Shown here: positions 19,365 through 39,403 of the stretch, one piece after another
Layout of the letters: each line of letters begins with the position of its first letter
How positions within the stretch are numbered: the stretch's first letter is position 1
Assembly (NCBI GenBank): GCA_038214255.1
Contig: JBBQRZ010000008.1
Coordinates: 23,832 to 87,831 of the forward strand
DNA from: Candidatus Limnocylindrales bacterium
GTDB taxonomy: Bacteria; Chloroflexota; Limnocylindria; Limnocylindrales; CSP1-4
DNA: 64,000 bases
Direction: 5' to 3'
Notes under the pieces: model-generated
What the model was told of the DNA's origin: nothing
Database searches by the model: none
What the model saw: only the letters and a program-made list of their open reading frames with translations
Translations under genes and position numbers: made by a program

Positions 19365-20141
19365 ATGCCCCCGGGGAGGCCCCTCGTGCCGCTCGACTTC
19401 CTCAAGCGCAAGAACACTGCCGACGTGCCGACCCCGACCGTCGGGCCGCCTCCGACCGGCTCGGTCACGTTGCCGGAAGAAGTCGTCGCGCAGGACTACC
19501 AGCTCAAGCTGTACTACGCGGGCAAGACGAGTGAGGGCGTCCGGATGAAGGCTGGCCCCGAGGCGATGGCCGAGTTGCCATCGATGCTCGTTGGCCTGGC
19601 CAAGGCCGAGATCGAGGTCGTGGAGCCCCTCCCCATCGAGTTCAGCCAGGCGACGCCGACGATCGCGCATCCGTCCGAGGCGATGCAGTGGCTCAATGCC
19701 CATCACGTCCACTCGCCGATCACCCGCCACGCGCTCGTCGTCCTCGAGTCCATCGACGCGATCGATCTGGCCTTCGATACCTTCGTCTGCTCGTTGCTCG
19801 ACGGAGAGATCGACACGAGCGGCTATCCCGAGTACAACGCCGTGGTCGGCGGCGTGGCCGCGCACTGGGACGAGGCGACGGGTGACATGATCTGCCGGGC
19901 CGTCGTCGGATGGGGCGGGCGGGGAGTTCGCGGCGATACGGACCGCATCGGTGCCAAACTCCTCGCTGGCCTGCTGACGAACGTCCTCACCAACCAGCAT
20001 GCGATGGGCCTGACGGCGATCGATCGCCCGGTCCCGGCGGCCGGCCGGGGCGGCTTGGTGTGCGCCCATTGCGGGTTCGCGTCGGCCCACGAGCGGGCCT
20101 TCTACTGCCCGAAGTGCGGCATGCGTCTCCTTCGCGGCTGA
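19365..20141 (+). CDS. Hypothetical protein with C-terminal zinc ribbon (CAHCG...CPKCG)
   Basis: Coding-like composition; four Cys at the C-terminus; no recognisable catalytic domain. Confidence 0.5.
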   Translation: MPPGRPLVPLDFLKRKNTADVPTPTVGPPPTGSVTLPEEVVAQDYQLKLYYAGKTSEGVRMKAGPEAMAELPSMLVGLAKAEIEVVEPLPIEFSQATPTIAHPSEAMQWLNAHHVHSPITRHALVVLESIDAIDLAFDTFVCSLLDGEIDTSGYPEYNAVVGGVAAHWDEATGDMICRAVVGWGGRGVRGDTDRIGAKLLAGLLTNVLTNQHAMGLTAIDRPVPAAGRGGLVCAHCGFASAHERAFYCPKCGMRLLRG

Positions 20142-20160: not shown

Positions 20161-20580
20161 GTGCCGCTCTACGACTACGTCTGCGAGGCCTGCAGACACC
20201 GGTTCGAGGTGATCCACGGCGTCCACGGCGAGGGCCCGGCGACGTGCCCGAGCTGCGGCAAGGGTCCGATCAGGAAGGGGATCACCACGGCGGCGATCCA
20301 CTACAAGGGTTCTGGCTGGGCCAAGAAGGAACGCCACGCGGCAGTCAAGTCGGGCGTCAAGGCCGACAGCGATGGCTCGGGCGGGGAGACGGGTGCGGGC
20401 GGCAAGGATGGCGACAAGGCCACCAACGACGCGGACAAGGGCGGGGACAAGGCCGTAAAGCCGTCCAGCGGCACGGAGAAGGGCGCGCCGAGCAGGTCCG
20501 AGAAGGCCGGCAGGGACCGTACCGAGAAAGCCGGCGAGGACCGGTCCGCCAAGCCATCCGCGGCCTCGACCGGCGACTGA
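20161..20580 (+). CDS. FmdB-family putative regulatory zinc-ribbon protein with Lys/Asp/Gly-rich disordered tail
   Basis: MPLYDYVCEACRHRFEV...CPSCG (CxxC...CxxC); GTG start. Confidence 0.7.
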   Translation: MPLYDYVCEACRHRFEVIHGVHGEGPATCPSCGKGPIRKGITTAAIHYKGSGWAKKERHAAVKSGVKADSDGSGGETGAGGKDGDKATNDADKGGDKAVKPSSGTEKGAPSRSEKAGRDRTEKAGEDRSAKPSAASTGD

Positions 20581-20836: not shown

Positions 20837-21748
20837 ATGGACGTGGCCATCGTGCTAGGACAGTTCCTCGACCGGCCGCGGGTTGCCTACGTTCGGTCGG
20901 TGCTCGACGTCTACGGTCGGGCGCCCGGCGGACTGCTGGCGAACGGTCTCGCGTTCGCTGCCCTTTTCTCGGCATTCCCGATCGCGTTCGTGACCCTCGG
21001 GGTAGCCGGCTTGCTCATCGGCAATCCGGCCGACCGGGCGGTCCTGGCCGAGTCGATCGCCGCCGTCGCCCCGCCGCTCCGCGAGGTCGTCGACGAGGCC
21101 GTGGCGGCCCTGGCCTCGGGCGCGGCGGTCACGTCGATCGTCGGCGTCGTCGGCCTCATCTGGACGGTCAGCCAGTTCTACGTGACGCTTGACGTGGCCT
21201 TCTCGCGGATCTTCACCGATCGACCGGAGCGTGACGTGTTCCGGCGCGTGGCCCGCGGGTTCGCGTGGGTGGCCGGGCTCGTGGGGATCGTCGTTGTGCT
21301 TATCGTCGCGGGGACGCTCGCCGCGGCCGCCAAGACATTCCTGCCGGAGTCGTACGGGACCCTCTGGAAGGTCGGCGACGTGCTCGCTTCGCCACTGGTG
21401 CTCGTCGGGGTCGGCGTCCTCGTCGTTCTGGTCGTCTACCGGGTCGTGCCGCCGCGGGCACCATCCTGGGGCGCGATCTGGCTGCCGGCCATCGTGGCCG
21501 GCCTGGCGATCGTCGCCCTCAGCCAGCTCTTCCTGTTCCTCGCTCCGCGCCTCATCGGCTCGGCTGCGCTCGCGGGATCGCTCGCAACCGCGTTCGTGGC
21601 CCTGGCCTGGCTGTCGTTCACGTTCCAGGCGCTGTTGTACGGCGCGGCCTGGGTCCGGGTACGCGACGAGGGAGCGCCTGGGACGGGCGGTTCAGCCCTG
21701 CCGGGTGCCGCAACGGCGGCAGAATCGGGCGGTCGCGGAGAGCGATAG
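20837..21748 (+). CDS. YihY/BrkB family inner membrane protein
   Basis: [15 protein letters not shown] and [15 protein letters not shown] motifs; multiple TM segments. Confidence 0.8.
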
Positions 21749-23230
21749 TCCGCAGCTGACACAGGCCTGGACGCCGCTCTTTGCGGCGGTTGCGACGGGA
21801 GCGGCCGTCACCTCGCGAGCCGATTCGGCCCAGAGCTGTTCGATCCCTCCGCTCGCCACGGCCGGCCGGCCAAAGGACGGGAGTCCACCGGCGCCGCGGT
21901 CGGCGGGCCACTCGGGCTGAGCCGGCCAGTTGGGGTTCGTCGATGCAGTGCTCGGTTCGACCGGTGCACGGAACGGTCCCGCTGGCGGGACCGCGATGGG
22001 CTGATCGCCGGCGCCGGGAGCGGGCACATCGGGTGCCACGATCCGCCAGGTCGGCTGTTCGACGACATCGCGACGGGCTTCCTCGGCCGCGACGACCGGC
22101 TCGGGCTCGGGCCCCGGTGCGGCGGCAACGACCGGCTCGGGCTCGGGCTCCGGTGCGGCGGCGATAACCGGCTCGGGTTCGGGCTCCAGCACGGCGGCGA
22201 TAACCGGCTCGGGTTCGGGTTCAGGTACGGCGGCGATAACCGGCTCGGGTTCGGGTTCCGGTACGGCGGCGACGACCGGCTCGGGCTCCAGCGCGGCGGC
22301 GACGGGCTCGGGAGCCGCGGCGATGACTGGATGGAGCTCGGGCTCCGGTCCGGCTGCGGCGATCGGCTCAACCTCGGGCTCGGCTGGGACCAGCTCGGCC
22401 TCGAACGCGGCGAGCTCGTCGTCGAGACTCTGGCCCGGGCGGAATCGCCGGAGGAGGTCCGTCGTCTGCTCCGCCGCCGCCGCGGCGCGTTCATCGGGAT
22501 CCTCGGCAGCATCGCTCGTCGGCGGGACCGGCGTGACCGGACGCGGGGCGATGGGCGCCGCACCGATGTCAGCCAGGCGTGCGGCGGCATCGATCGGCTC
22601 GAGACCCTCATCCTCGTCGAATCCGGTGCCAGCGATCTCGCCTGCCTCGAACTCGTCCGCTCGCGCCCGGAGCAGATCCCAGGCTGGCGCTTCCTCGGCC
22701 CGCAGAGCGCCTGGCTCGACCGTCGCGTCGAGCCCGGACGCGAGGTCGACCGTCGGTAGTTCGTCGCGAAGCAGATCGCTGGTTGGCCAGGCCATGGCGT
22801 CAGCCATCGGGGGCGGTTCGTGATGTCCGTTCGGCCCGCCGTTCCCCCCGTTGGTCTCGAGGCCCGCGGCCGGGTCGAGGTGGGGGAATGGGGCTTGCAG
22901 GATGTCGTGGCCCAGGTGCGGCGCGCACGACAGGCACTGGCCCTCGGCCTCGTTCCAGCAGTTGCCGCACGTGTACTGGCGGCAGGACATGCAGAAGTTG
23001 AAGGTCTTGTGGAACGCGTCGAGCTGGTGGGTCGTGACTTCTCGGTCGGACTCGCTGCGCGCGGCCGCCATCGCCTCGTCCAACGACGTGTCGTCGGACA
23101 TGACGAAGTTCTTGAGGCCGCGGGAGAGGACCTTGACGCCCCTGAGGCGCGGCCCGCGGGGCGCCCCGGACTCGAAGGTGTAGCGCGTGCCGCACCGTTC
23201 GCAGAAGGATTCGGTCAAGATCTCGGGCAT
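21692..23230 (-). CDS. Double zinc-ribbon protein with acidic Pro/Glu/Ala tandem-repeat linker ([11 protein letters not shown] repeats)
   Basis: N-terminal CERCG...[14 protein letters not shown]...CLSCAP and C-terminal CVSCG...CRRCG. Start set at MPEILTESF; the upstream part of ORF 21692..24022 overlaps fhaA and was rejected. Confidence 0.65.
22091..22270. repeat. Five tandem copies of a 36-bp coding repeat (gaynaccggctcgggytcgggytcnrgyrcggcggc), plus degenerate copies on both sides
   Basis: Direct inspection. Encodes the [11 protein letters not shown] 12-aa repeats of the zinc-ribbon protein on the minus strand. Confidence 0.7.
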
Positions 23231-23383
23231 CGGGTCCCCGGAGCAGGGTCGCTGGACAAGTTCAGGCCGGACGGACCACCCGAACGAGGCGAGAGTATAC
23301 CCCCACGTGCTGTGCGCCCCAGCACCGGGGGTACTGACGACACACGCGGATGGTCCCTCCCGGGGGCGCTCGGGACCCTCTGC

Positions 23384-23389
23384 TAGACT
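23384..23389 (+). promoter_or_regulatory. Extended -10-like element TGC-TAGACT 12 nt upstream of the fhaA ATG
   Basis: ctcTGCTAGACTccgccaccgaccATG; same motif as upstream of tRNA-Leu. Confidence 0.35.
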
Positions 23390-23401
23390 CCGCCACCGAC
23401 C

Positions 23402-24190
23402 ATGCCGCCGCTGGCCGCCATCGAGCGGTTCTTCGAACGCCTCTTCGAGCGTCCGTCCGCGCGTCTCTTCCGGGCACGTCTCCAGCCGGTCCAGCTGCAG
23501 CGTCGGATCGAGCGTGCGATGGAGGCGGATCGGCTCGCTACCGCCGACCGCACCCTTGTCCCGAACCGCTTCGTCGTCCATCTCAATCCCGACGACCTCG
23601 TCAAGTTCGGCGACATGACGGACAGCCTCGCATCGGAGCTCGCCGATGGCGCGCTTGTCTTCGCCCGGGCCCGCCGCTACACGCTCGTCGATCGACCTCG
23701 CGTCGATCTGCTGAGCGACCCGACCGTCGACCGAGCCGATATCCGGGTGACCGCGCGGTATGCCGATCCGATCCCCGGACGCGACGAGCGCGTGCCCCAC
23801 GAGCTCGATCTCGACGAAGCCGGCGACGACTCGCGCGGCCCGGTCCGCGCCGACACGATGGTCTACACGATCCCACGGCCCAGCGCGCCGCGCGCCCGGT
23901 TGCGGGTCACGAGCCAGGAGGGCGCGAGCCGAACCTGCGACTTCGACGGCGGTGGCTTCACGATCGGCCGAGCGGCCGACAACGATCTCGTGCTCCCTGA
24001 CGGTGGCGTCTCGCGCCACCACGCCCGGATCGTGGGTCGGCGAGGGACGCTGGTCTACACCGACTTGGGCAGCACCAACGGGTCGCGGGTGAATGGCGTG
24101 ACCGTCGGGGAGCTGGTGCTCGGCGCGGGCGACCGCATCGAGCTGGGCGATACCGTCATCGTCGTCGAGGTCGCCGGGGACGTGCCCTAG
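23402..24190 (+). CDS. fhaA: FHA domain protein FhaA (DUF3662 N-domain plus C-terminal FHA)
   Basis: [11 protein letters not shown] at the N-terminus; FHA core [23 protein letters not shown]...[14 protein letters not shown]. Confidence 0.8.
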
Positions 24191-24631
24191 ATGGACGGGT
24201 TCCTGGCCGTCATCTGGATCGTCCGGCTCCTGTTCCTCGCCCTCCTGTATCTATTTCTCGCCAGGGTCGTGCGCTCGCTGCTGCGCGACCTGCGGGCGGC
24301 GGCGCGAGAGCCATCGAGCTCGCTCGGCCGCCTGATCGTCCTCGACTCGCCGAGCGGCGAGCCGCCGCAGGGCCGCTCGTTCGATCTCGACGCGATCACG
24401 ACACTCGGGCGGGACGTCAACAACGCGATCGTCATCGAAGACCCGTTCGCCTCGGCCGAGCACGCCGTATTGACATACCGCGGCCAGAGCTGGTACGTGG
24501 AGGATCTCGGGAGCACGAACGGGACCTATGTCAACGGAGGCCCGGTCGCCGACCTGTCGCCACTCGGGTATGGCGATGAGGTCGCGATCGGCCAGGTCCG
24601 GTTGCGCCTCGAGCGAGCGCGGCCCGCATGA
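24191..24631 (+). CDS. fhaB: FHA domain membrane protein FhaB/FipA-like
   Basis: N-terminal TM helix then FHA ([22 protein letters not shown]...[14 protein letters not shown]). ATG abuts the fhaA stop. Confidence 0.75.
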
Positions 24632-27840: not shown

Positions 27841-28035
27841 AGGTTCGCGCGGAATGAGCGATTCGCCCCGGCGCAATGCCGTTCGGATCATGCCGCCGAA
27901 CGCCGCTTCGGAACCGATTTGACGGAACCGACGTACTATCCTGCGACACCACGGACCAGCACTGTGGTTCGTCGCACCCCCGAACGCCCGACCCCGGCGA
28001 TGCCGCACACGTCGCCGCAGCCGCGAGAGAGGCCG

Positions 28036-29052
28036 ATGTCGAAGATCCAGGAAACCGGGGACCGAGTCCTCGCCAACGTCGAGCGAGTCATCGTCGGCAA
28101 GCACCACGAGGTCCGCCTCGCGCTTGTCGCCCTCCTCTGCCGGGGCCACCTGCTCATCGAGGATGTGCCGGGGACCGGGAAGACCGTCCTGGCCAAGGCC
28201 ATCGCGCGAAGTCTCGGCTGTTCGTTCCGGCGCATCCAGTTCACGCCGGACCTCCTGCCCTCAGACGTTTCGGGCCTGTCGATCTACAACCAGAAGACCC
28301 AGGAGTTCGAGTTCCGGCCCGGACCGATCATGAGCCAGGTCGTGCTCGCCGACGAGATCAACCGGGCCACTCCCAAGACGCAGTCGGCGCTGCTCGAGTG
28401 CATGGAAGAGCGCCAGGCCACCATCGACGGAACGACCTATCCGATGCCCGACCCGTTCCTCGTCATCGCCACGCAGAACCCGATCGAGTACGAGGGCACG
28501 TTCGCCCTGCCGGAGGCCCAGCTCGACCGGTTCATGCTCCGGATCCGCCTCGGCTACCCTCAGCCGATCGAGGAGATCCTGATCCTCGACGAGCAGAAGC
28601 GCAGCCACCCGCTTGAGGAGATCGAGGAGGTCCTGAGCGTCGAAGAGCTACGCAGCCTCCAGGACGCCGTCCGTGAGATCTACGTCGATCCGACGGTCGC
28701 CGACTACATCGTCCGGGTCGTCAACGCCACGCGCAGCCATCCCGACGTCTACCTGGGCGCCTCGCCGCGCGGGTCGATCGCGCTCTACCGCGCCGGCCAG
28801 GCGCTGGCGGGGCTGCTCGGGCGCGACTATGTGATCCCCGACGACGTCAAGGCCCTCGCGGAGCCGGCCCTCGCCCACCGCCTGATCATCAAGACGAGCT
28901 CATCGATCCACGACGTCCAGGCCGGCCAGGTCGTGCGCGAGATCCTCGACGCCACTGCGATCGACGGCATCCGGCCGACCGGCGGCGGACCCACCGAGAT
29001 CCGACGGTCCGCCGCATCGAGTCGCGCGGGCACCAGCGCCGCCGGCGCCTAG
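28036..29052 (+). CDS. MoxR family AAA+ ATPase
   Basis: [33 protein letters not shown], plus an arginine-finger region. GAGAGAGG ribosome-binding site before the ATG. Confidence 0.85.
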
Positions 29053-29091
29053 TCCCTCGACGTCGAGCCAGCGAGCAACCGGGCGCGCGTC

Positions 29092-30348
29092 GTGATCCGC
29101 CGGCTGCAGTTCCTGGCCATCGCCACCGTCCTCATCGTGGCGTCGTTCTCGACCGGCCAGCCGTTCCTGTTCTATCTGCTCTATCTCGCGATCCTCGTCG
29201 TGGGTGGCTCGTACATTCTCGTCCGCCTCGGCCTGTCCGACCTGGAGGCCGGGTACGCGGTGAGCCAGCTCCACGGCCACGTCGGCGACCGGATGCGGGT
29301 CACGTACACGCTACGCAACGCCAGTCGCGTGCCCAAGCCGTGGCTCGAGGTCCACAACCCGACGACGCTGCCCGGCGGCCTGCCCGGGCGCGCCCTGCCG
29401 CTTGGCGGGCAGGCCGAGCGCTCGTGGCTGATCCGCGCCCCACTGACGCGTCGCGGCCATTTCCGGATCGAACCGCTCCACATCCGGACCGGCGATCCGT
29501 TCGGGTTCTACGAGGCTTCCGCGACCGTGGGTCAGGGGGTCAGCCTCGTCGTCTATCCGCGCCTGGAGCCACTGCCGGCCTGGCGCCTGCCGCCGGCAAG
29601 CCTCGAGGGCAGCCACGCCGCCCCCGAGCGGACCCTCCAGACGACGCCGCTCGCGACGACGGTCCGACCGTACGCGCCGGGCGACAGCATGAACCGCATC
29701 CACTGGCGCTCGACGGCGCGGCACGGTGACATCCAAGTCAAGGAGTTCGACCTGGAGCAGACCGCCGACGCATGGATCATCCTCGACCTCCAGCGCGCCA
29801 TCCAGGCCGGCCACGGCGACGATTCGACGACCGAGGTGGCCATCCGGGCGGCCGCCTCGATCGCCGACAGGGCGCTTACCGAAAACCGGGCGGTGGGGAT
29901 GACCGTCAACGCCGGCCGAACCGCGTTCCTGCCCGCCGATCGCGGCGGGCGCCAGCATCAGAAGATCATGCAGCTCCTCGCCGCCGTCGAGGCGGATCCG
30001 GGTAGCCCGCTCGTCGAGACGCTGATCGGCTCGGTCGGGCGCCTGCGGCGGGGGATGACCGCGGTTGTGATCACGGCCTCGAGCGATCCGGCCTGGGTCC
30101 GGCCGCTGGCGGCGCTCCGGACCCGGGGCGTGGCCTGCGTCGTCGTCGCGCTCGACGCCCCGGCCTTCGCCCAGGCCGAGCTCGAGGCACGCGCCGCCGC
30201 TACCGGCGAACCCGTCGTCCTCGATCCGGCGGCAACCGAGACCGCCGCCAAGCGTGCCCGCGCGTTGCGCCACGCCCTGGCCGAGTACGAGCTCAGATCG
30301 TTCACGGTCCGGCCGGGCCGCCCGCTCGGGGAGATGCTCGCTCGATGA
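29092..30348 (+). CDS. DUF58 domain protein (vWA-like partner of MoxR)
   Basis: Two N-terminal TM helices, a DUF58 core, GTG start. Confidence 0.8.
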   Translation: MIRRLQFLAIATVLIVASFSTGQPFLFYLLYLAILVVGGSYILVRLGLSDLEAGYAVSQLHGHVGDRMRVTYTLRNASRVPKPWLEVHNPTTLPGGLPGRALPLGGQAERSWLIRAPLTRRGHFRIEPLHIRTGDPFGFYEASATVGQGVSLVVYPRLEPLPAWRLPPASLEGSHAAPERTLQTTPLATTVRPYAPGDSMNRIHWRSTARHGDIQVKEFDLEQTADAWIILDLQRAIQAGHGDDSTTEVAIRAAASIADRALTENRAVGMTVNAGRTAFLPADRGGRQHQKIMQLLAAVEADPGSPLVETLIGSVGRLRRGMTAVVITASSDPAWVRPLAALRTRGVACVVVALDAPAFAQAELEARAAATGEPVVLDPAATETAAKRARALRHALAEYELRSFTVRPGRPLGEMLAR

Positions 30349-32633
30349 CCCGCGACCTGCCGCGGCGACCCTCGGAGGGCTGGCTGACCCTCGGCCTGGT
30401 CTTCCTGCTGAGCCTGACCCTGGCCTGGTCGCTCGACGACGCCAACCTGGTCGTCGGTCGTGGCGATTACACGGATTTCCTGGTCTGGACCGCGATCGGT
30501 GGGGCGTTCGCGGGGTTCGTCGGGTCGAAGGTCGGCTGGCGTCGCTGGACGACGTTCGCCGTTGGGGCGATGTTTGCCGCGCTCATCACGCCACTCATCG
30601 TGGGGTCGGTGCTGCTGCCCGACGGCGGCAACCTGTACCAGCTATTCGAAGCGACCGCGACCGCGTGCGTCGTCGCGTGGCGCGATCTGATCGTCTTCGA
30701 CCGGCTCTCGACGTCGGCATTCGGGCATCACCTGCTGGTGCTCGGCCTGATCGTGTGGGGCTCGTCGATGTTTGCCAGCTATGCCGCGTTCGGCCATCGG
30801 CGGCCGATCAACGGGGTGATCCTCATCGGCGTCCTGCTCGTCGGGAACATGGCACTGACGGTCCACGACCAGCTGGGCTACCTCGTCCTCTTCTCGCTCG
30901 CCGGGCTCTTCCTGCTGATCCGCTTCCACACGTTCGAGGAGTCGACCGAGTGGTTGCGTCGCCGAATCGGCGACCCGTCCGCGATCTCGGGGATGTACCT
31001 GCGCGGCGGGACGGTGTTCGTCGGGGCCGCGGTGCTTGGTTCGCTCGTCCTGACGTCGACCGCGAAATCGGCTCCCCTCAGCTCGATGTGGACCGACGTG
31101 GGCGGGAACATCGTCGAATGGTCCCGCGCGATCGAGAAGTTCCTCCCGGCCAGCGGCTCCGGCGTCTCCCTGGGGCCGGCGTTCGGTTCGACCGCGCCGA
31201 TCACCGGCTCGTGGACCACGAATGACGCGCCGGCGCTGTCGATCGACGTCCCGGCCGATCTCGACGTGATCCCGCACTGGGCGGCGGTGACGTACGACGT
31301 GTTCGACGTCCAGGGCTGGCGGCAGAGCCAGGCCACGTTCGTCGACCGCGCCCCGAACGTCGACCTGCTGGCCGACACCGGCGACGCCGTCGACGAGTCC
31401 GGCCGGCGCCCGCTGACCGTGAAGATCACCCCGGCGAACACCGCACCGACCCTCTCGACGATCTTTGCGCCGTCGACACCGCTGGCTGTCGACGCGCCGG
31501 TGACCGTCAAGCTCGTGGGCACCGAGGGGCACCTGGCCTCGATCGACCGGCGTCCATCGAAGAACCCCTATACGGTCTCCGCGCTGATCCCCCTGCGTGG
31601 CGATGGTGCTGGGGCGAGCCTGACCCAGAACCGCCTGCGGGCGGCGGGCACGGCCTACCCACCCGAGATCTCGGCGCTCTATCTCGGGCTGCCCCCGGAA
31701 GCCCTCGGTCCCGAGTCCGAAAAGATCCTCGCCGAGGTCAGGGCATTCGGGGCGCGCAACCCCTACGACATCGCGGCCTCGATCGTCCGCATCCTCCAGG
31801 ATCCCGCGAAGTTCACGTACTCCACCGACATCCGAGGCGTCGATTGCGCCGGCGTGTCGGTCGTCGAGTGCTTCGCCATCGCGAAGGGCGGCTACTGCGA
31901 GTACTACGCCTCCACGATGGCAGTGCTCCTGCGCGAGCTGGGCATCCCGGCACGCTTCGTCGAGGGGTATCTGCCGGGGTCGCGCGCCGAGGGCTCGAAC
32001 ACGGTCAACATCACCAACAATCAGGCCCATGCCTGGGTCGAGGTCTACTTCCCGCGCTACGGCTGGGTCACGTTCGACCCGACCGGCGGTGGGGTCGGCC
32101 AGAACCCGGCGCTGCCCTCGGGGGCACCGGTGTCGTCAGCCGGACCCGGGTCGTCGCCCAGTATCGACCCGCTCGGCAGCCGGGTCCCGCCACGCAACGA
32201 CGGGCGCGATCCGCTCGGGGGGACGTCGACGCCGATTCCGCGACCCGGCTCGTCCGGGCCGCTGATCGCGATCGCGCTGCTCCTCGCGGCCATCGTCGCC
32301 GGCCTGGCCTTCGTGGCCTGGCAGCGGGGACCGCGCGGCCCGGTGAGCGCCGACGACGTCTACGGCTCGATCACGCGGCTGGCCGGCCGCCTGGGCTTCG
32401 GTCCGCGGCCCAACCAGACGGTCTATGAGTACGCGGGAGCCCTCGCCGAGATCCTGCCGGTCGCCCGGCGCGAGCTCGAGACGGTCGCGCACGCCAAGGT
32501 CGAGGTCGCCTACGGCGGTCGGACGCTCGGCGCCGATCGGCTGCGCGGACTCCGCGAGGCGCAGCGGCGCCTGCGCCTGAGCCTGCTGCGCCTGGCTGTC
32601 CGGCGCGCCCGTCGCGGCCGAAACCGACGCTGA
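30345..32633 (+). CDS. Transglutaminase-like multi-pass membrane protein (TgpA-like, DUF3488 plus TGase core)
   Basis: Cys-His-Asp core (GGYCEYYAS...AHAWVEVYFP...VTFDPTGG), N-terminal multi-TM region, C-terminal TM. ATGA overlap with the DUF58 gene. Confidence 0.8.
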   Translation: MTRDLPRRPSEGWLTLGLVFLLSLTLAWSLDDANLVVGRGDYTDFLVWTAIGGAFAGFVGSKVGWRRWTTFAVGAMFAALITPLIVGSVLLPDGGNLYQLFEATATACVVAWRDLIVFDRLSTSAFGHHLLVLGLIVWGSSMFASYAAFGHRRPINGVILIGVLLVGNMALTVHDQLGYLVLFSLAGLFLLIRFHTFEESTEWLRRRIGDPSAISGMYLRGGTVFVGAAVLGSLVLTSTAKSAPLSSMWTDVGGNIVEWSRAIEKFLPASGSGVSLGPAFGSTAPITGSWTTNDAPALSIDVPADLDVIPHWAAVTYDVFDVQGWRQSQATFVDRAPNVDLLADTGDAVDESGRRPLTVKITPANTAPTLSTIFAPSTPLAVDAPVTVKLVGTEGHLASIDRRPSKNPYTVSALIPLRGDGAGASLTQNRLRAAGTAYPPEISALYLGLPPEALGPESEKILAEVRAFGARNPYDIAASIVRILQDPAKFTYSTDIRGVDCAGVSVVECFAIAKGGYCEYYASTMAVLLRELGIPARFVEGYLPGSRAEGSNTVNITNNQAHAWVEVYFPRYGWVTFDPTGGGVGQNPALPSGAPVSSAGPGSSPSIDPLGSRVPPRNDGRDPLGGTSTPIPRPGSSGPLIAIALLLAAIVAGLAFVAWQRGPRGPVSADDVYGSITRLAGRLGFGPRPNQTVYEYAGALAEILPVARRELETVAHAKVEVAYGGRTLGADRLRGLREAQRRLRLSLLRLAVRRARRGRNRR

Positions 32634-36406: not shown

Positions 36407-37336
36407 ATGACCCGCTCGCCGGCCCGCCGCGGCCGCCTACGACGCCTCGCCGCGATCGCCGTCGTGCTGTCGCTCGTCGCCGCCACCCTCACGACGCTGG
36501 CCATCGCGACGGATGCGTTCGGGGCGGGCGAACGCTGGGACGCGCTCCTGGCGAAGGTCGACCGCTTCCTCGCCGGCCCGGTCCCGCAGCGACACACCCT
36601 CTCGACCGTGCGCGTCACCCCGCCGCCCTCGATCGAGCCGGCGACCGCGCCGGCCACGCCGGATCCGTCGGGCCACGTCCCGACCGCGGCGCCGACGGTG
36701 AAGCCGAAACGCGTCGCGGTCGATATCAACATCGCCACCTCGCCCGACCAGGTCTTCAAGACCGAGCTCCACAAGGATTGGTGTGCCGTGGCCGGCGTCC
36801 AGATCGTGCTGGCCCAGCTGGGGCTTGCCGATACCTCCGACGCCACCCAGAACAAGCTCGCCGGGCGGATCCGCGAGTGGGACTCGTACGACGACAGCCA
36901 CAACGGGGACTGGGGCCCGGCTGCGATGGCCCTGGCCCTCCAGACCTATGGCGCCCCGGGCTACGAGATCCGGGCCTTCGAGGGTCGGAACGAAGCCCTG
37001 GTCGACGCGGCCCGGGCGATCGAGACGACCGGCTCGCCGGCGATCCTCCTGGCCTGGCGGGGTGCCCACACCTGGGTGATGTCCGGGTTCAAGGCCGATG
37101 CCGACCCCGTCCTCTTCGACCGCAACGTGCACATCTCCGGCACCTACATCCTCGACCCGTGGTATCCCCGGATCTCCTCGATCTGGGGCCCCTCCGACCC
37201 GCCGGGGACCTTCCAGGACAAGCCCGAGATGGAGCGCAACTTCCTGCCCTGGAAGCGGCCCGAAGGGAACTATCCGGACCGCGATGGGCTCTACATCACG
37301 GTGGTCCCGACGCTGCCGGCTCCGAAGGGGGGTTAG
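36407..37336 (+). CDS. Secreted protein with Tat-like signal and C39-like peptidase fold candidate
   Basis: RRGRLRRLAAIAVV signal sequence, a Pro/Thr/Ala linker, and conserved Cys (DWCAVAGVQ) and His residues. Confidence 0.6.
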   Translation: MTRSPARRGRLRRLAAIAVVLSLVAATLTTLAIATDAFGAGERWDALLAKVDRFLAGPVPQRHTLSTVRVTPPPSIEPATAPATPDPSGHVPTAAPTVKPKRVAVDINIATSPDQVFKTELHKDWCAVAGVQIVLAQLGLADTSDATQNKLAGRIREWDSYDDSHNGDWGPAAMALALQTYGAPGYEIRAFEGRNEALVDAARAIETTGSPAILLAWRGAHTWVMSGFKADADPVLFDRNVHISGTYILDPWYPRISSIWGPSDPPGTFQDKPEMERNFLPWKRPEGNYPDRDGLYITVVPTLPAPKGG

Positions 37337-38681
37337 GGGGCATCGCCCGTATCCGCCGGGCGAGGACGACGACGAGCAGCGCGAACCGGAGTGCGACCCC
37401 GGACGAGAACCCGATCGGGATGGCCGCCGCCCCCAGCGGGCCGGCGAGCACGAGCGTGACAAGGATCGTGACGCCGAATCCGACGAGCGTGGCAATCACC
37501 TGCCAGGCCGTGTGGTGGGTCGCGTAGATCGCCCGGCTGAACAGGTGCCCCAGGCTCTCGAACGGGATCGAGATCGCGAAGAGGGCGAGGACCAGGGAGG
37601 TGCGTGCCACGGCGTCGGCATCGAACCGGCCACCCAGGAAGAACAGGTCGATCGCGAATGGGCCGACGATCGCCAGGCCGAGCGCCGCGGCCGTGGTCAG
37701 GAGGCCGATCGTCAGGGCGTTGACCCGAACGAGGCGCACGAAGGCGGCTCGCTCGCCGGCCGCGTAGGCCGCAGCCAGCGATGGGAACGCGGCCACGGAG
37801 AAGGCGATGCCGATCAGGCTGACGGGCACGCTCTGGAAGTTGCGGGCGAGGTTGATCGTCGTGATGCTCCCGGTCGCGAGCGCCGAACCGACGCGGGTGA
37901 AGAATAGGAAGGTCAGCGGCTCGACCGGGCCGCTGCCGATCTTGGGGATCGCCAGCGCCACGAACTCGCGAACCGCCCCGGTGCCGACCCGAAATCGCGG
38001 CCGGATCCGAAATGGCGTCCGGAGCGACCCGATGACGCGGATCCCGAGGTGCAGGCTCGCCCCCAGGACCGCCCCCACCGCCGGCGCGTAGATCCCGATC
38101 TTTCCCGCGAGCAGTAGGGTGCCGACGACGATGCCGGTGTTGAACATCAGCGGCGCCGCGCCGTAGAAGAAGAAGCGACGCTCGGCGACGAGCACCTCGC
38201 CGATCGCAGTCGACGCCGCGAACAGCACCTGGGTGACGCACAGGATCCGGAACAGGGACACGTACAGGTCGCGACGCTCTGCATCGAATCCGGGGGCGAC
38301 GATCTGGACCGTCAGGGGCGCGGCGACGAACAGGACGACCGCGACGGCGCCCATCGCCAGGACCGCCAGGGTCAGGATCGTCTGGGCGAACTCGAAGGCC
38401 GCGCGCTCGCTCTCGCGTCGGAGGCCGCTGAAGATCGGGATGAACGGCGCCGCGAGCCCGCTCGCGACGATGACGCTGAAGGCGAGGTCGGGCAGGACGA
38501 ACGCCGTGTTGAACGTGTCGAGCTCGAGGCCGGCGCCGAACGTCCGCGTCAGGGCTCGGTCCCGAACCAGGCCCATGATGTAGCCGGAAAACGTCAGGGC
38601 CGACAGCAGGATCGCGCCGCGCGGCACGACGCGATCGATCAGCGGACGGATCGCGCCCAGGCGCGCGCTCGTTGTCGCCAT
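37296..38681 (-). CDS. murJ: Lipid II flippase MurJ
   Basis: MviN/MurJ N-terminal motif (SALTFSGYIMGLVRDRALTRTFGAG...DTFNTAFVLPD), about 14 TM segments. Start at MATTSARLG. Confidence 0.85.
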   Translation of the reverse strand: MATTSARLGAIRPLIDRVVPRGAILLSALTFSGYIMGLVRDRALTRTFGAGLELDTFNTAFVLPDLAFSVIVASGLAAPFIPIFSGLRRESERAAFEFAQTILTLAVLAMGAVAVVLFVAAPLTVQIVAPGFDAERRDLYVSLFRILCVTQVLFAASTAIGEVLVAERRFFFYGAAPLMFNTGIVVGTLLLAGKIGIYAPAVGAVLGASLHLGIRVIGSLRTPFRIRPRFRVGTGAVREFVALAIPKIGSGPVEPLTFLFFTRVGSALATGSITTINLARNFQSVPVSLIGIAFSVAAFPSLAAAYAAGERAAFVRLVRVNALTIGLLTTAAALGLAIVGPFAIDLFFLGGRFDADAVARTSLVLALFAISIPFESLGHLFSRAIYATHHTAWQVIATLVGFGVTILVTLVLAGPLGAAAIPIGFSSGVALRFALLVVVLARRIRAMPPNPPSEPAASGPP

Positions 38682-38719
38682 GTCCTCAGGATGACGGCCG
38701 GAACGGCCCCGGTGCACCG

Positions 38720-39403
38720 CTATCGGGTCGGGCAGCGCTTGCTTCGCGGGGGAGCGGGCGCGAGGAGCAGGCGATCCAGCGTTTCGCCGTACCACCGTTC
38801 GAACCGGGACGGGCTCCAGCCACGGTCGACGACCAGGAGCCGGTACGTCTCGGGGCTGCCGATGGCACAGACGATGTCCGCGGCGGCGTCCAGGTCCAGC
38901 CCATCCCGAAAGGCGGTGGAGCCGGCCACGATGCGAAGAAGCTCTCGCTGCCCGTGGTAGCGCTGCTCGATGCCGACCTGCCGCAGCGCGGCGATCTCCG
39001 GGTCGGCGGCGGCGGCGCCCCGGACCACGTCGTCGATCTCGGCTCGGCGCTCCAGGATCGAGCGTCCGTTGCCGGCGAGGATCGACAGTCGACGATGGGG
39101 ATCGGGTTCCTCGCGCATCGCCTGTACCCAGTCCTGGTCGAGGACCGGGGGCGCCTCGGTGCCGCCGGCGATCGAGACATCGACGAGTGCCGACAGCACC
39201 GCGCGCTTGTTCCCGAACGTGGCGTAGATCGTTTCGGACGACACCTCCGCGCGCGTGGCGATCGCGTCGATCGTCGTCGCGACGTAGCCCCGCTCGACGA
39301 AGAGGGCGCGAGCCGCATCGAGGACGGCTCGACGGGTGGCGATCGCCGCCTCGCGGCGACGAGGTGACTCGTACGGGCGACGACGCTTGACAGATCCCGG
39401 CAT
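38720..39403 (-). CDS. TetR/AcrR family transcriptional regulator
   Basis: HTH ATTIDAIATRAEVSSETIYATF. Confidence 0.8.
   Translation of the reverse strand: MPGSVKRRRPYESPRRREAAIATRRAVLDAARALFVERGYVATTIDAIATRAEVSSETIYATFGNKRAVLSALVDVSIAGGTEAPPVLDQDWVQAMREEPDPHRRLSILAGNGRSILERRAEIDDVVRGAAAADPEIAALRQVGIEQRYHGQRELLRIVAGSTAFRDGLDLDAAADIVCAIGSPETYRLLVVDRGWSPSRFERWYGETLDRLLLAPAPPRSKRCPTR

Follow-up and report, generated by a model that had tools for sequence, protein, structure and literature searches.

A conserved orphan protein with cysteine-rich ends and a length-variable acidic centre is encoded divergently from fhaA in Limnocylindria

A 64,000 nt stretch of DNA from a Candidatus Limnocylindrales bacterium (contig JBBQRZ010000008.1 of assembly GCA_038214255.1, positions 23,832 to 87,831; this whole stretch is the window referred to below) carries, at 21692-23230 on the minus strand, an open-reading frame (ORF) for a 512 amino acid (aa) protein with zinc-ribbon-like modules at both ends, which we refer to here as the ribbon protein. 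Judged by its sequence conservation, this ORF is a real, expressed-type and selectively maintained gene of an orphan family, seen so far only in Limnocylindria (Chloroflexota). The class (formerly Ellin6529) is abundant in soil and freshwater and almost entirely uncultured, and to our knowledge there is no information on wall construction in its members. The ribbon protein is conserved across the class beside fhaA, fhaB, rodA and a class B penicillin-binding protein (PBP) gene, the one operon of the locus that can be recognised as serving wall-growth signalling, and this makes it a candidate for a missing FHA ligand or adaptor. We regard it as plausible, at a probability of roughly one in three, that the protein acts as a flexible adaptor of the FhaA/FhaB-RodA-PBP elongation module. 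A first-pass annotation, made from the sequence alone, had described the 512-aa ORF, a 171-bp region shared with the divergent fhaA and a 3′ overlap of about 57 bp with a convergent yihY-like gene; translation (512 aa plus stop), the gap at 23231-23401 and the end of the yihY ORF at 21748 bear out all three.

An exhaustive profile search, which covered 1.84 billion cluster representatives, returned 796 relatives of the ribbon protein (515 at E ≤ 1e-30), most of them 400-700 aa long with the conserved domain at the N-terminus. A scan of species-representative genomes found the family encoded in more than 580 genomes, and 80 loci were fetched from these, picked by similarity to the ribbon protein. 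Named sources are Limnocylindria or Chloroflexota throughout, apart from evident mis-binnings, and a 103-kb NCBI contig already on record encodes a protein identical to the one described here; an exact-sequence look-up among contigs gave no record of it. Where the ORF is uninterrupted, as in 43 loci, it ends in the same C-terminal ribbon, C(V/I)SCGLSLSA(T/N)ARFCRRCG, and the proteins are 402-709 aa long; the family as a whole ranges from 367 to 836 aa. A further 15 loci, nearly all of them in long-read metagenome-assembled genomes (MAGs), have an early stop and still encode the ribbon at the expected distance, 12 in another frame and three in the same frame; the simplest explanation of these breaks is indel errors within the repeat-rich centre. 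The two end modules are conserved around a centre that varies in length and stays in frame, and the ORF is therefore not a chance one.

The contrary explanation, that this is a frame opened by chance in 71% GC DNA, an assembly artefact of its repeat or a ribosomal protein L40E, is refuted by that conservation and retains practically no credibility. High-GC DNA does yield long spurious ORFs, with many in this window, and short-read contigs often break or turn chimeric inside the repeat, but hundreds of genomes keep the two termini and several internal motifs in frame, and third-position GC reaches 0.95 over the N-terminal domain (first 115 codons). The Ala/Pro/Glu/Val-rich centre has a high first-position GC, as its amino-acid composition predicts. 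In public sources the homologues go under “hypothetical protein” or under “ribosomal protein L40E”, a name that derives from the ribbon alone and that JGI gives to several of them; ribosomal L40E, however, is an archaeal and eukaryotic protein of ~50 aa, against 512 aa here, and no Ribosomal_L40e match was found at E ≤ 0.1. The start codon at 23230 is taken as correct because homologues begin at M-x-E-I-L-T-E and because it is preceded by a conserved promoter and leader; a few homologue gene calls carry N-terminal extensions beyond this sequence. The longer start of the mechanical ORF call (GTG at 24022, 776 aa) was rejected, as its extension runs antisense through fhaA. A word-indexed search with a 129-aa N-terminal query gave only proteins of 95-226 aa, which had suggested a spurious long tail, but full-length relatives score equally, the list of matches appears biased by length, and the short matches (≤226 aa) are fragments or frameshifted gene calls.

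The family is undescribed, but it is assembled from known kinds of parts. The ribbon protein has no Pfam match above threshold and no NCBIfam match, PDB sequence searches with two profiles gave nothing meaningful, and in the literature search “FhaA” and “zinc ribbon” stood together in no paper. The N-terminal domain (residues 1-118; 22877-23230, minus strand), delimited by invariant columns and an AlphaFold2 model, is the CxxC-rich module already noticed at first pass, and holds four CxxC pairs (C10/C13, C80/C83, C88/C91 and C99/C102). All eight cysteines, together with H74 and W92, are invariant in 34 homologues; in a 113-sequence alignment seven of the cysteines are invariant and C83 is nearly so, and identity over the domain is 65-86% across the family. 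AlphaFold2 places the first knuckle in a hairpin (4-9/16-20), followed by a helix (50-76) and short strands (77-99) with the other three knuckles, at a predicted local distance difference test (pLDDT) score of 81-87 over residues 70-100 and a mean of 64. Residues 21-46 form an Arg/Lys-rich basic loop which is conserved and predicted, at low confidence, to be disordered.

Neither sequence nor fold searches gave a PDB relative of the N-terminal domain, and when the 34 N-domains were compared singly with Pfam all matches were sub-threshold: DZR_2 in 25, DZR in 21, Prok-RING_2 in 20 and Fer2_3 in five. The best weak E-values among these members were 0.0068 for DZR, 0.052 for DZR_2 and 8.5e-4 for Prok-RING_2, the last over residues 79-103. 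With the generic zinc ribbons (PF13240, DZR PF12773 and DZR_2 PF18912) the protein shares pairs of knuckles of the form CxxC-x(n)-CxxC, but its scores stay below cutoff (19.6 vs. 25; 18.4 vs. 27.3), no curated family covers the N-domain, and this domain has a 66-residue loop-and-helix insertion between knuckles 1 and 2 as well as a fourth CxxC. The resemblance to Prok-RING_2 (PF14445), a binuclear treble-clef, lies in the eight metal ligands, which could form a cross-brace; however, the match to the ribbon protein (14.7 bits, cutoff 22.4) takes in the second half of the model alone (positions 24-48 of 56), the 66-residue spacing between ligand pairs exceeds the usual RING range, and no ubiquitin-like system genes are found nearby. 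The FmdB ribbon (TIGR02605/PF09723) shares the N-terminus M-P-x(5-7)-C-E-x-C-G/R-x-R-F/Y-x-F/V-E and a disordered tail after the ribbon, but it gave no Pfam or NCBIfam match to our protein even at E ≤ 5, and the second knuckle here is displaced by 66 residues.

The same ligands could be read differently, as those of an Fe-S (iron-sulphur) cluster or of a redox thiol switch, which would make the ribbon protein a redox sensor. Plant-type 2Fe-2S motifs have a spacing similar to that of C83-x4-C88-x2-C91-x7-C99, the eight cysteines and H74 are invariant, and Fer2_3 is the best single Pfam match of this N-domain (E = 0.0085, 16.5 bits, residues 74-105). We nevertheless think it very unlikely, as the Fer2_3 score is far under the 27-bit cutoff and the match recurs in 5 of 34 members, against 20-25 of 34 for zinc-ribbon and RING-like models, the sequence C10-x2-C13-G is a classic zinc knuckle, and the AlphaFold2 topology is a ribbon-like hairpin-knuckle.

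At the other end of the protein, residues 487-512 with the stop codon (21692-21772, minus strand), beginning GVQ(A/P), form the C-terminal CxxC...CxxC ribbon, which was also correctly recognised at first pass and is exactly CxxC-x10-CxxC (C490/C493 and C504/C507). These four cysteines and their flanking residues are invariant in the 113 sequences, and the nearly invariant ribbon as a whole is basic (pI, the isoelectric point, 9.5). Pfam Zn_Ribbon_1 (PF13240) aligns with residues 490-509 at 19.6 bits (E = 7.6e-4), below its gathering cutoff of 25, and the C-terminal 26 residues also align with DZR, again sub-threshold. The ribbon codons run into the convergent yihY/BrkB-like gene (Pfam Virul_fac_BrkB; 20837-21748, plus strand), with which they share 57 bp (21692-21748), and an overlap of 54-57 bp is present in 27 of 43 loci. 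The TAG stop codon of yihY is the antisense of the Leu495 codon CTA within the invariant ribbon, and the ribbon sequence therefore constrains the tail of YihY. The two convergent genes leave no room between them for a terminator.

Between the two modules lie ~370 residues which had been described as a low-complexity linker. This centre is indeed acidic and of low complexity, but it is no plain linker: it holds at least five conserved motifs or helices, and the repeats occupy ~100 of its residues, the remainder carrying conserved non-repetitive motifs. AlphaFold2 predicts the centre to be disordered except for helices at 183-196, 245-261, 269-280 and 463-476. The motif nearest the N-terminal domain, A-W-P-x-x-D-L (residues 147-153; 22772-22792, minus strand), was found in 88 of 131 full-length homologues by a search pattern that fixed W, P and D, and L was the commonest residue at its own position (77/88). 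Conservation mapping and motif logos gave two further motifs, (I/F)D-A-A-A-R-L-A (residues 213-220) and D-x-V-x-Q-P-T-W-x-I-V-A-P-D (residues 388-401), the core of the latter, Q-P-T-W-(R/Q)-I-V-A-P-(D/E) (residues 392-401; 22028-22057, minus strand), being present in 68 of 131 sequences in a regex logo. A helix-RFRPG-helix element (residues 245-280; 22391-22498, minus strand), defined by AlphaFold2 and alignment, joins helices 245-261 and 269-280 (pLDDT 79-89), has a consensus that ends in (L/I)AA(Y/F)E and was found in 40 of 44 genome loci; T256, D270 and E277 within it are invariant in the 113 sequences. Beyond the repeats, alignment, logo and AlphaFold2 mark a C-terminal conserved block (residues 432-476; 21803-21937, minus strand) which starts (N/E)P and contains P-x-W-P-x-Q-P-E-W-P (433-442), G-L-P-(S/F)-(F/L)-G-R-P (449-456) and then a helix motif, G-G-I-E-x-L-W-A-E-S-x-R-E-V (461-474; predicted helix 463-476, pLDDT ~76), with P436, P439, W441, L466, W467 and S470 invariant in the same alignment. 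Its L-P-(S/F)-(F/L)-G-R-P portion (residues 450-456; 21863-21883, minus strand) loosely resembles the C-terminal peptide of FtsZ, (I/V)-P-x-F-(L/M)-R. The product as a whole is a soluble, very acidic, cytoplasmic protein, with a pI of 4.3, a net charge of about -51 and no segment hydrophobic enough for a membrane helix.

The only hypervariable part of the ribbon protein is its repeat segment, whose behaviour is that of an acidic, proline-rich spacer tolerant of changes in length. By Tandem Repeats Finder it is a 36-bp array of 5.7 copies at 22084-22288 (minus strand; 89% matches, score 277) whose unit encodes (V/A)PEPEPEPV(I/V)AA. Degenerate copies reach ~22411, and in the protein the repeat array takes up residues about 285-383. 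A separate repeat search found five successive 36-nt spacings plus degenerate flanking copies. This is the same array in which the first-pass annotation had counted five clean 36-bp units at 22091-22270, but the register is shifted by 6 nt, to 22085-22264 (residues 323-382). In most homologues the same position is taken up by a tandem array too, but one with other periods (15-177 bp) and other units, such as EPEPVAAEV, AEVVAEPEAV and APEPIAA, and in some lineages the unit is Ala/Gln/Glu-rich and helical. From this comparison of sequences, the array is one that has been repeatedly reinvented and not inherited, its presence and composition being conserved and its sequence and period not.

Over shorter distances the array changes by whole units. 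Relatives ~80% identical to the ribbon protein show whole-unit indels in the array only, and in two clusters of at least 90% identity, with lengths of 513/523/523/525 and 502/520/520/520/524 aa, all gap columns (2-18 residues) fall in the PEPEPV array, with 9-16 mismatch columns elsewhere. The suggestion that linker length may vary between strains is thus supported by in-frame array indels within these clusters, and units are added to and lost from the segment in frame, which is what replication slippage would produce. These length comparisons rest on metagenome assemblies, for which such an array is a known trouble spot, and the copy number given here is a provisional one, taken from the assembly. 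Of the 80 contigs, 11 end inside the linker (L001, L003, L007, L009, L011, L024, L044, L057, L064, L067 and L080), whilst in L073 (1-5760), a contig binned as Kapaibacterium, high-GC Limnocylindria DNA gives way to low-GC DNA within the repeat; as a chimeric contig L073 was rejected as an exception to the synteny described below. Short-read contigs break or become chimeric at the repeat, and frame breaks in MAGs, mostly long-read ones, coincide with it, so that automated annotations of the family are often truncated or mislabelled. The ribbon protein is also a clean natural case in which short motifs are frozen and a repeat spacer turns over at strain level, which is useful for the study of linker-length evolution. 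Glu-Pro or Pro-rich spacers are known from the (EP)n-(KP)n rod of TonB and the P/Q linker of ZipA, and here as there (E-P)n runs are expected to be extended, length-setting and tolerant of indels; the present spacer differs in being purely acidic, in its V-x-A-A punctuation, in having no membrane anchor and in repeats that turn over between species.

Across the 171-bp control region the ribbon protein faces fhaA (262 aa; 23402-24190, plus strand), with FhaA_N (2.9e-24) and FHA (1.5e-17) domains, followed by fhaB (24191-24631, plus strand; an N-terminal hydrophobic helix and an FHA domain by Pfam and NCBIfam), rodA and the class B PBP gene. In all 79 loci with upstream flank (79/79), fhaA lies divergently 160-385 bp upstream and is followed by fhaB, rodA and PBP, and this junction is kept even where FhaA identity is 47-55%. 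Downstream, yihY, a BldC-like helix-turn-helix (HTH) gene, an FmdB ribbon gene, a 258-aa orphan (p258) and a GH13 gene are kept as well, giving a ~10-kb order, GH13-p258-FmdB-HTH-YihY-target-FhaA-FhaB-RodA-PBP (the target being the ribbon protein), which is collinear across the sampled class. Synteny is weak evidence for function here, because the whole stretch is collinear and the loci were selected through the ribbon protein and belong to one class. The scaffold or regulator role that the first-pass annotation had proposed was drawn from gene position, which discriminates weakly, and it stays plausible.

Nearly as probable as the adaptor role is that the function of the ribbon protein has nothing to do with FHA, RodA or PBP, that the adjacency was simply inherited and that the protein is a general cytoplasmic hub or tether which engages other partners through its zinc modules and short motifs. 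The collinearity extends over the ~10-kb neighbourhood in all sampled loci, neither kinase nor phosphatase is encoded nearby (no phosphatase was found in the window or in the flanks of related loci), the protein has no homology to cell-wall proteins, and its 3′ end is overlapped with yihY just as tightly and conservedly. However, the fhaA junction is alone in never being broken: the yihY junction is broken in L054, where yihY lies ~3.2 kb from the 3′ end of the ribbon gene, and GH13 is missing or displaced in ~10 loci. The back-to-back promoter elements, too, are conserved. Together the unbroken fhaA junction and the conserved control region favour a specific tie to fhaA.

In the adaptor reading, the ribbon protein would be a flexible adaptor of the divergently encoded FhaA (a cytoplasmic FHA protein), FhaB (a membrane-anchored one), RodA and the class B PBP, its metal modules and conserved motifs serving as docking sites, and conserved back-to-back promoters would co-ordinate its expression with that of fhaA. 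The FHA domains of both FhaA and FhaB retain the GR...SxxH...NG phosphothreonine-binding residues and therefore need phosphothreonine (pThr) ligands. Mycobacterial FhaA recognises CwlM as well as the pseudokinase domain of MviN/MurJ in its phosphorylated form (PMC11898655). The MurJ flippase in the window (37296-38795, minus strand) is bare, without a C-terminal pseudokinase extension, and FhaA here therefore needs another ligand. Like those mycobacterial ligands, the ribbon protein offers a conserved Thr with a hydrophobic +3 residue in a flexible region, and it adjoins fhaA, but it has no sequence relationship to MviN or CwlM, its locus is without a PknB-like kinase and its pThr is a candidate one. 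That candidate is Thr256 (22463-22465, minus strand), within the helix-RFRPG-helix element and in a T-x-x-L context, which would be the best phosphothreonine for an FHA domain in this protein, with the kinase encoded elsewhere in the genome. In 182 of 183 sequences a Thr precedes F[RK]PG by 7 residues, and it is the only essentially invariant Thr of the disordered region; the +3 residue, which is the main selectivity position of FHA domains, is Leu in 71 of 81 and otherwise Met or Phe.

Several results weigh against the adaptor reading or this site. A Ser/Thr kinase catalytic-loop motif occurs neither in the 64-kb window nor within ±10 kb of any related locus, no sequence or fold relative of the ribbon protein points to a function, and with region-wide collinearity and loci chosen via this protein its place beside fhaA may reflect descent. 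Thr256 itself lies inside the confidently predicted helix 245-261 (pLDDT 79-89), FHA domains usually bind extended peptides, and two loci (L012 and L053) lack the Thr256 half of the motif. Two other conserved phospho-sites were considered and rejected, A-W-P-T-x-D-L with Thr at the third position in only 49 of 88 sequences and Q-P-T-W with Thr in only 49 of 68. Overall, it is rather unlikely that an FHA domain reads phosphorylated Thr256.

Mycobacterial FhaA, with its FhaA_N domain, long disordered linker and FHA domain, is itself comparable to the ribbon protein in having folded end modules, a long disordered middle and the same operon context, but FhaA here is short, with a linker of ~50 residues, and the long disorder sits in the divergently encoded protein between zinc-ribbon ends. 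A bolder version of the adaptor reading, which we rate as a long shot, would make the ribbon protein a Limnocylindria-specific, phosphorylation-read adaptor that links the FHA domains of cytoplasmic FhaA and membrane-anchored FhaB to the RodA-PBP synthase and so replaces both the phosphorylated MurJ pseudokinase and the long FhaA linker of Actinobacteria, with the (EP)n array serving as a molecular ruler, open to evolution, for how far the complex can reach.

The control region between the two genes (23231-23401) was compared in an alignment of 66 intergenic regions, in which two -10-like hexamers are at least 90% conserved: TAGACT at 23384-23389 (plus strand), 12 nt before the fhaA ATG, and TATACT at 23294-23299 (minus strand), 63 nt before the ATG of the ribbon gene. 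The former position implies a near-leaderless fhaA mRNA. Conserved GGACC(A/T)TC and GTACC blocks lie between the hexamers, are not explained by -35 spacing and, from their conservation, may be an operator; a scan of the region for canonical sigma-70 promoters and terminators returned nothing, and Rfam gave no family. The leader of the ribbon-protein mRNA (23231-23293) has a constant length of 60-72 nt across loci and contains, near its 5′ end, a hairpin (GUUCGGGU ... GCCUGAAC; 23260-23285, minus strand), identified from single-sequence folds and a hand-set structure. The hairpin is present in nearly all loci (median z of -1.65 vs. dinucleotide shuffles), the share of paired cells is 83% and falls to 23-56% when the structure is slid, and the covariation score was exceeded in 2 of 500 shuffles. 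Its outer stem GUUCG/CGAAC has a compensatory form, GCUCG/CGAGC, and the inner stem varies and stays paired. Support for the hairpin is moderate; RNAalifold on a MAFFT alignment of the leaders missed this local structure because of loop indels. The leader 5′ CCCC(G) is complementary to the GGGG of the ribosome-binding site, with no covariation.

These elements bear on one more explanation, that the ribbon protein is a regulator which binds nucleic acid or RNA polymerase, perhaps at the divergent promoter or leader, with an auto-inhibitory or activating acidic centre. Binding to nucleic acids is common among zinc ribbons, the one at the C-terminus here is basic, the Arg/Lys-rich loop of the N-domain is conserved, and the control region has both the GGACC/GTACC blocks, for which the -10 elements do not account, and the conserved leader hairpin. 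Even so, we consider it quite improbable: there is no match to a DNA-binding family and no fold match, proteins that bind nucleic acids do not usually carry a net charge such as -51, and the nearby BldC-like HTH gene could equally serve those sites.

Further genes of the locus add a few observations. The FmdB-family ribbon gene (20161-20580, plus strand) lies two genes from that of the ribbon protein, and the 258-aa orphan (19365-20141, plus strand) ends in its own CxxC-x11-CxxC ribbon, such that the locus encodes three ribbon proteins. The orphan has no Pfam or NCBIfam match, aligns with the C-terminal region of the ribbon protein over the ribbon only (E = 0.036), and is 73-90% identical in most related loci, which is more conserved than FhaA or YihY. 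Unlike the actinobacterial cluster, there is no PP2C phosphatase gene between fhaB and rodA here. Right after the PBP gene, at 27919-32633 (plus strand), a MoxR-type AAA+ ATPase, a DUF58 protein and a transglutaminase-like/DUF4129 protein are encoded, a common trio which here is appended to the wall-synthesis operon.

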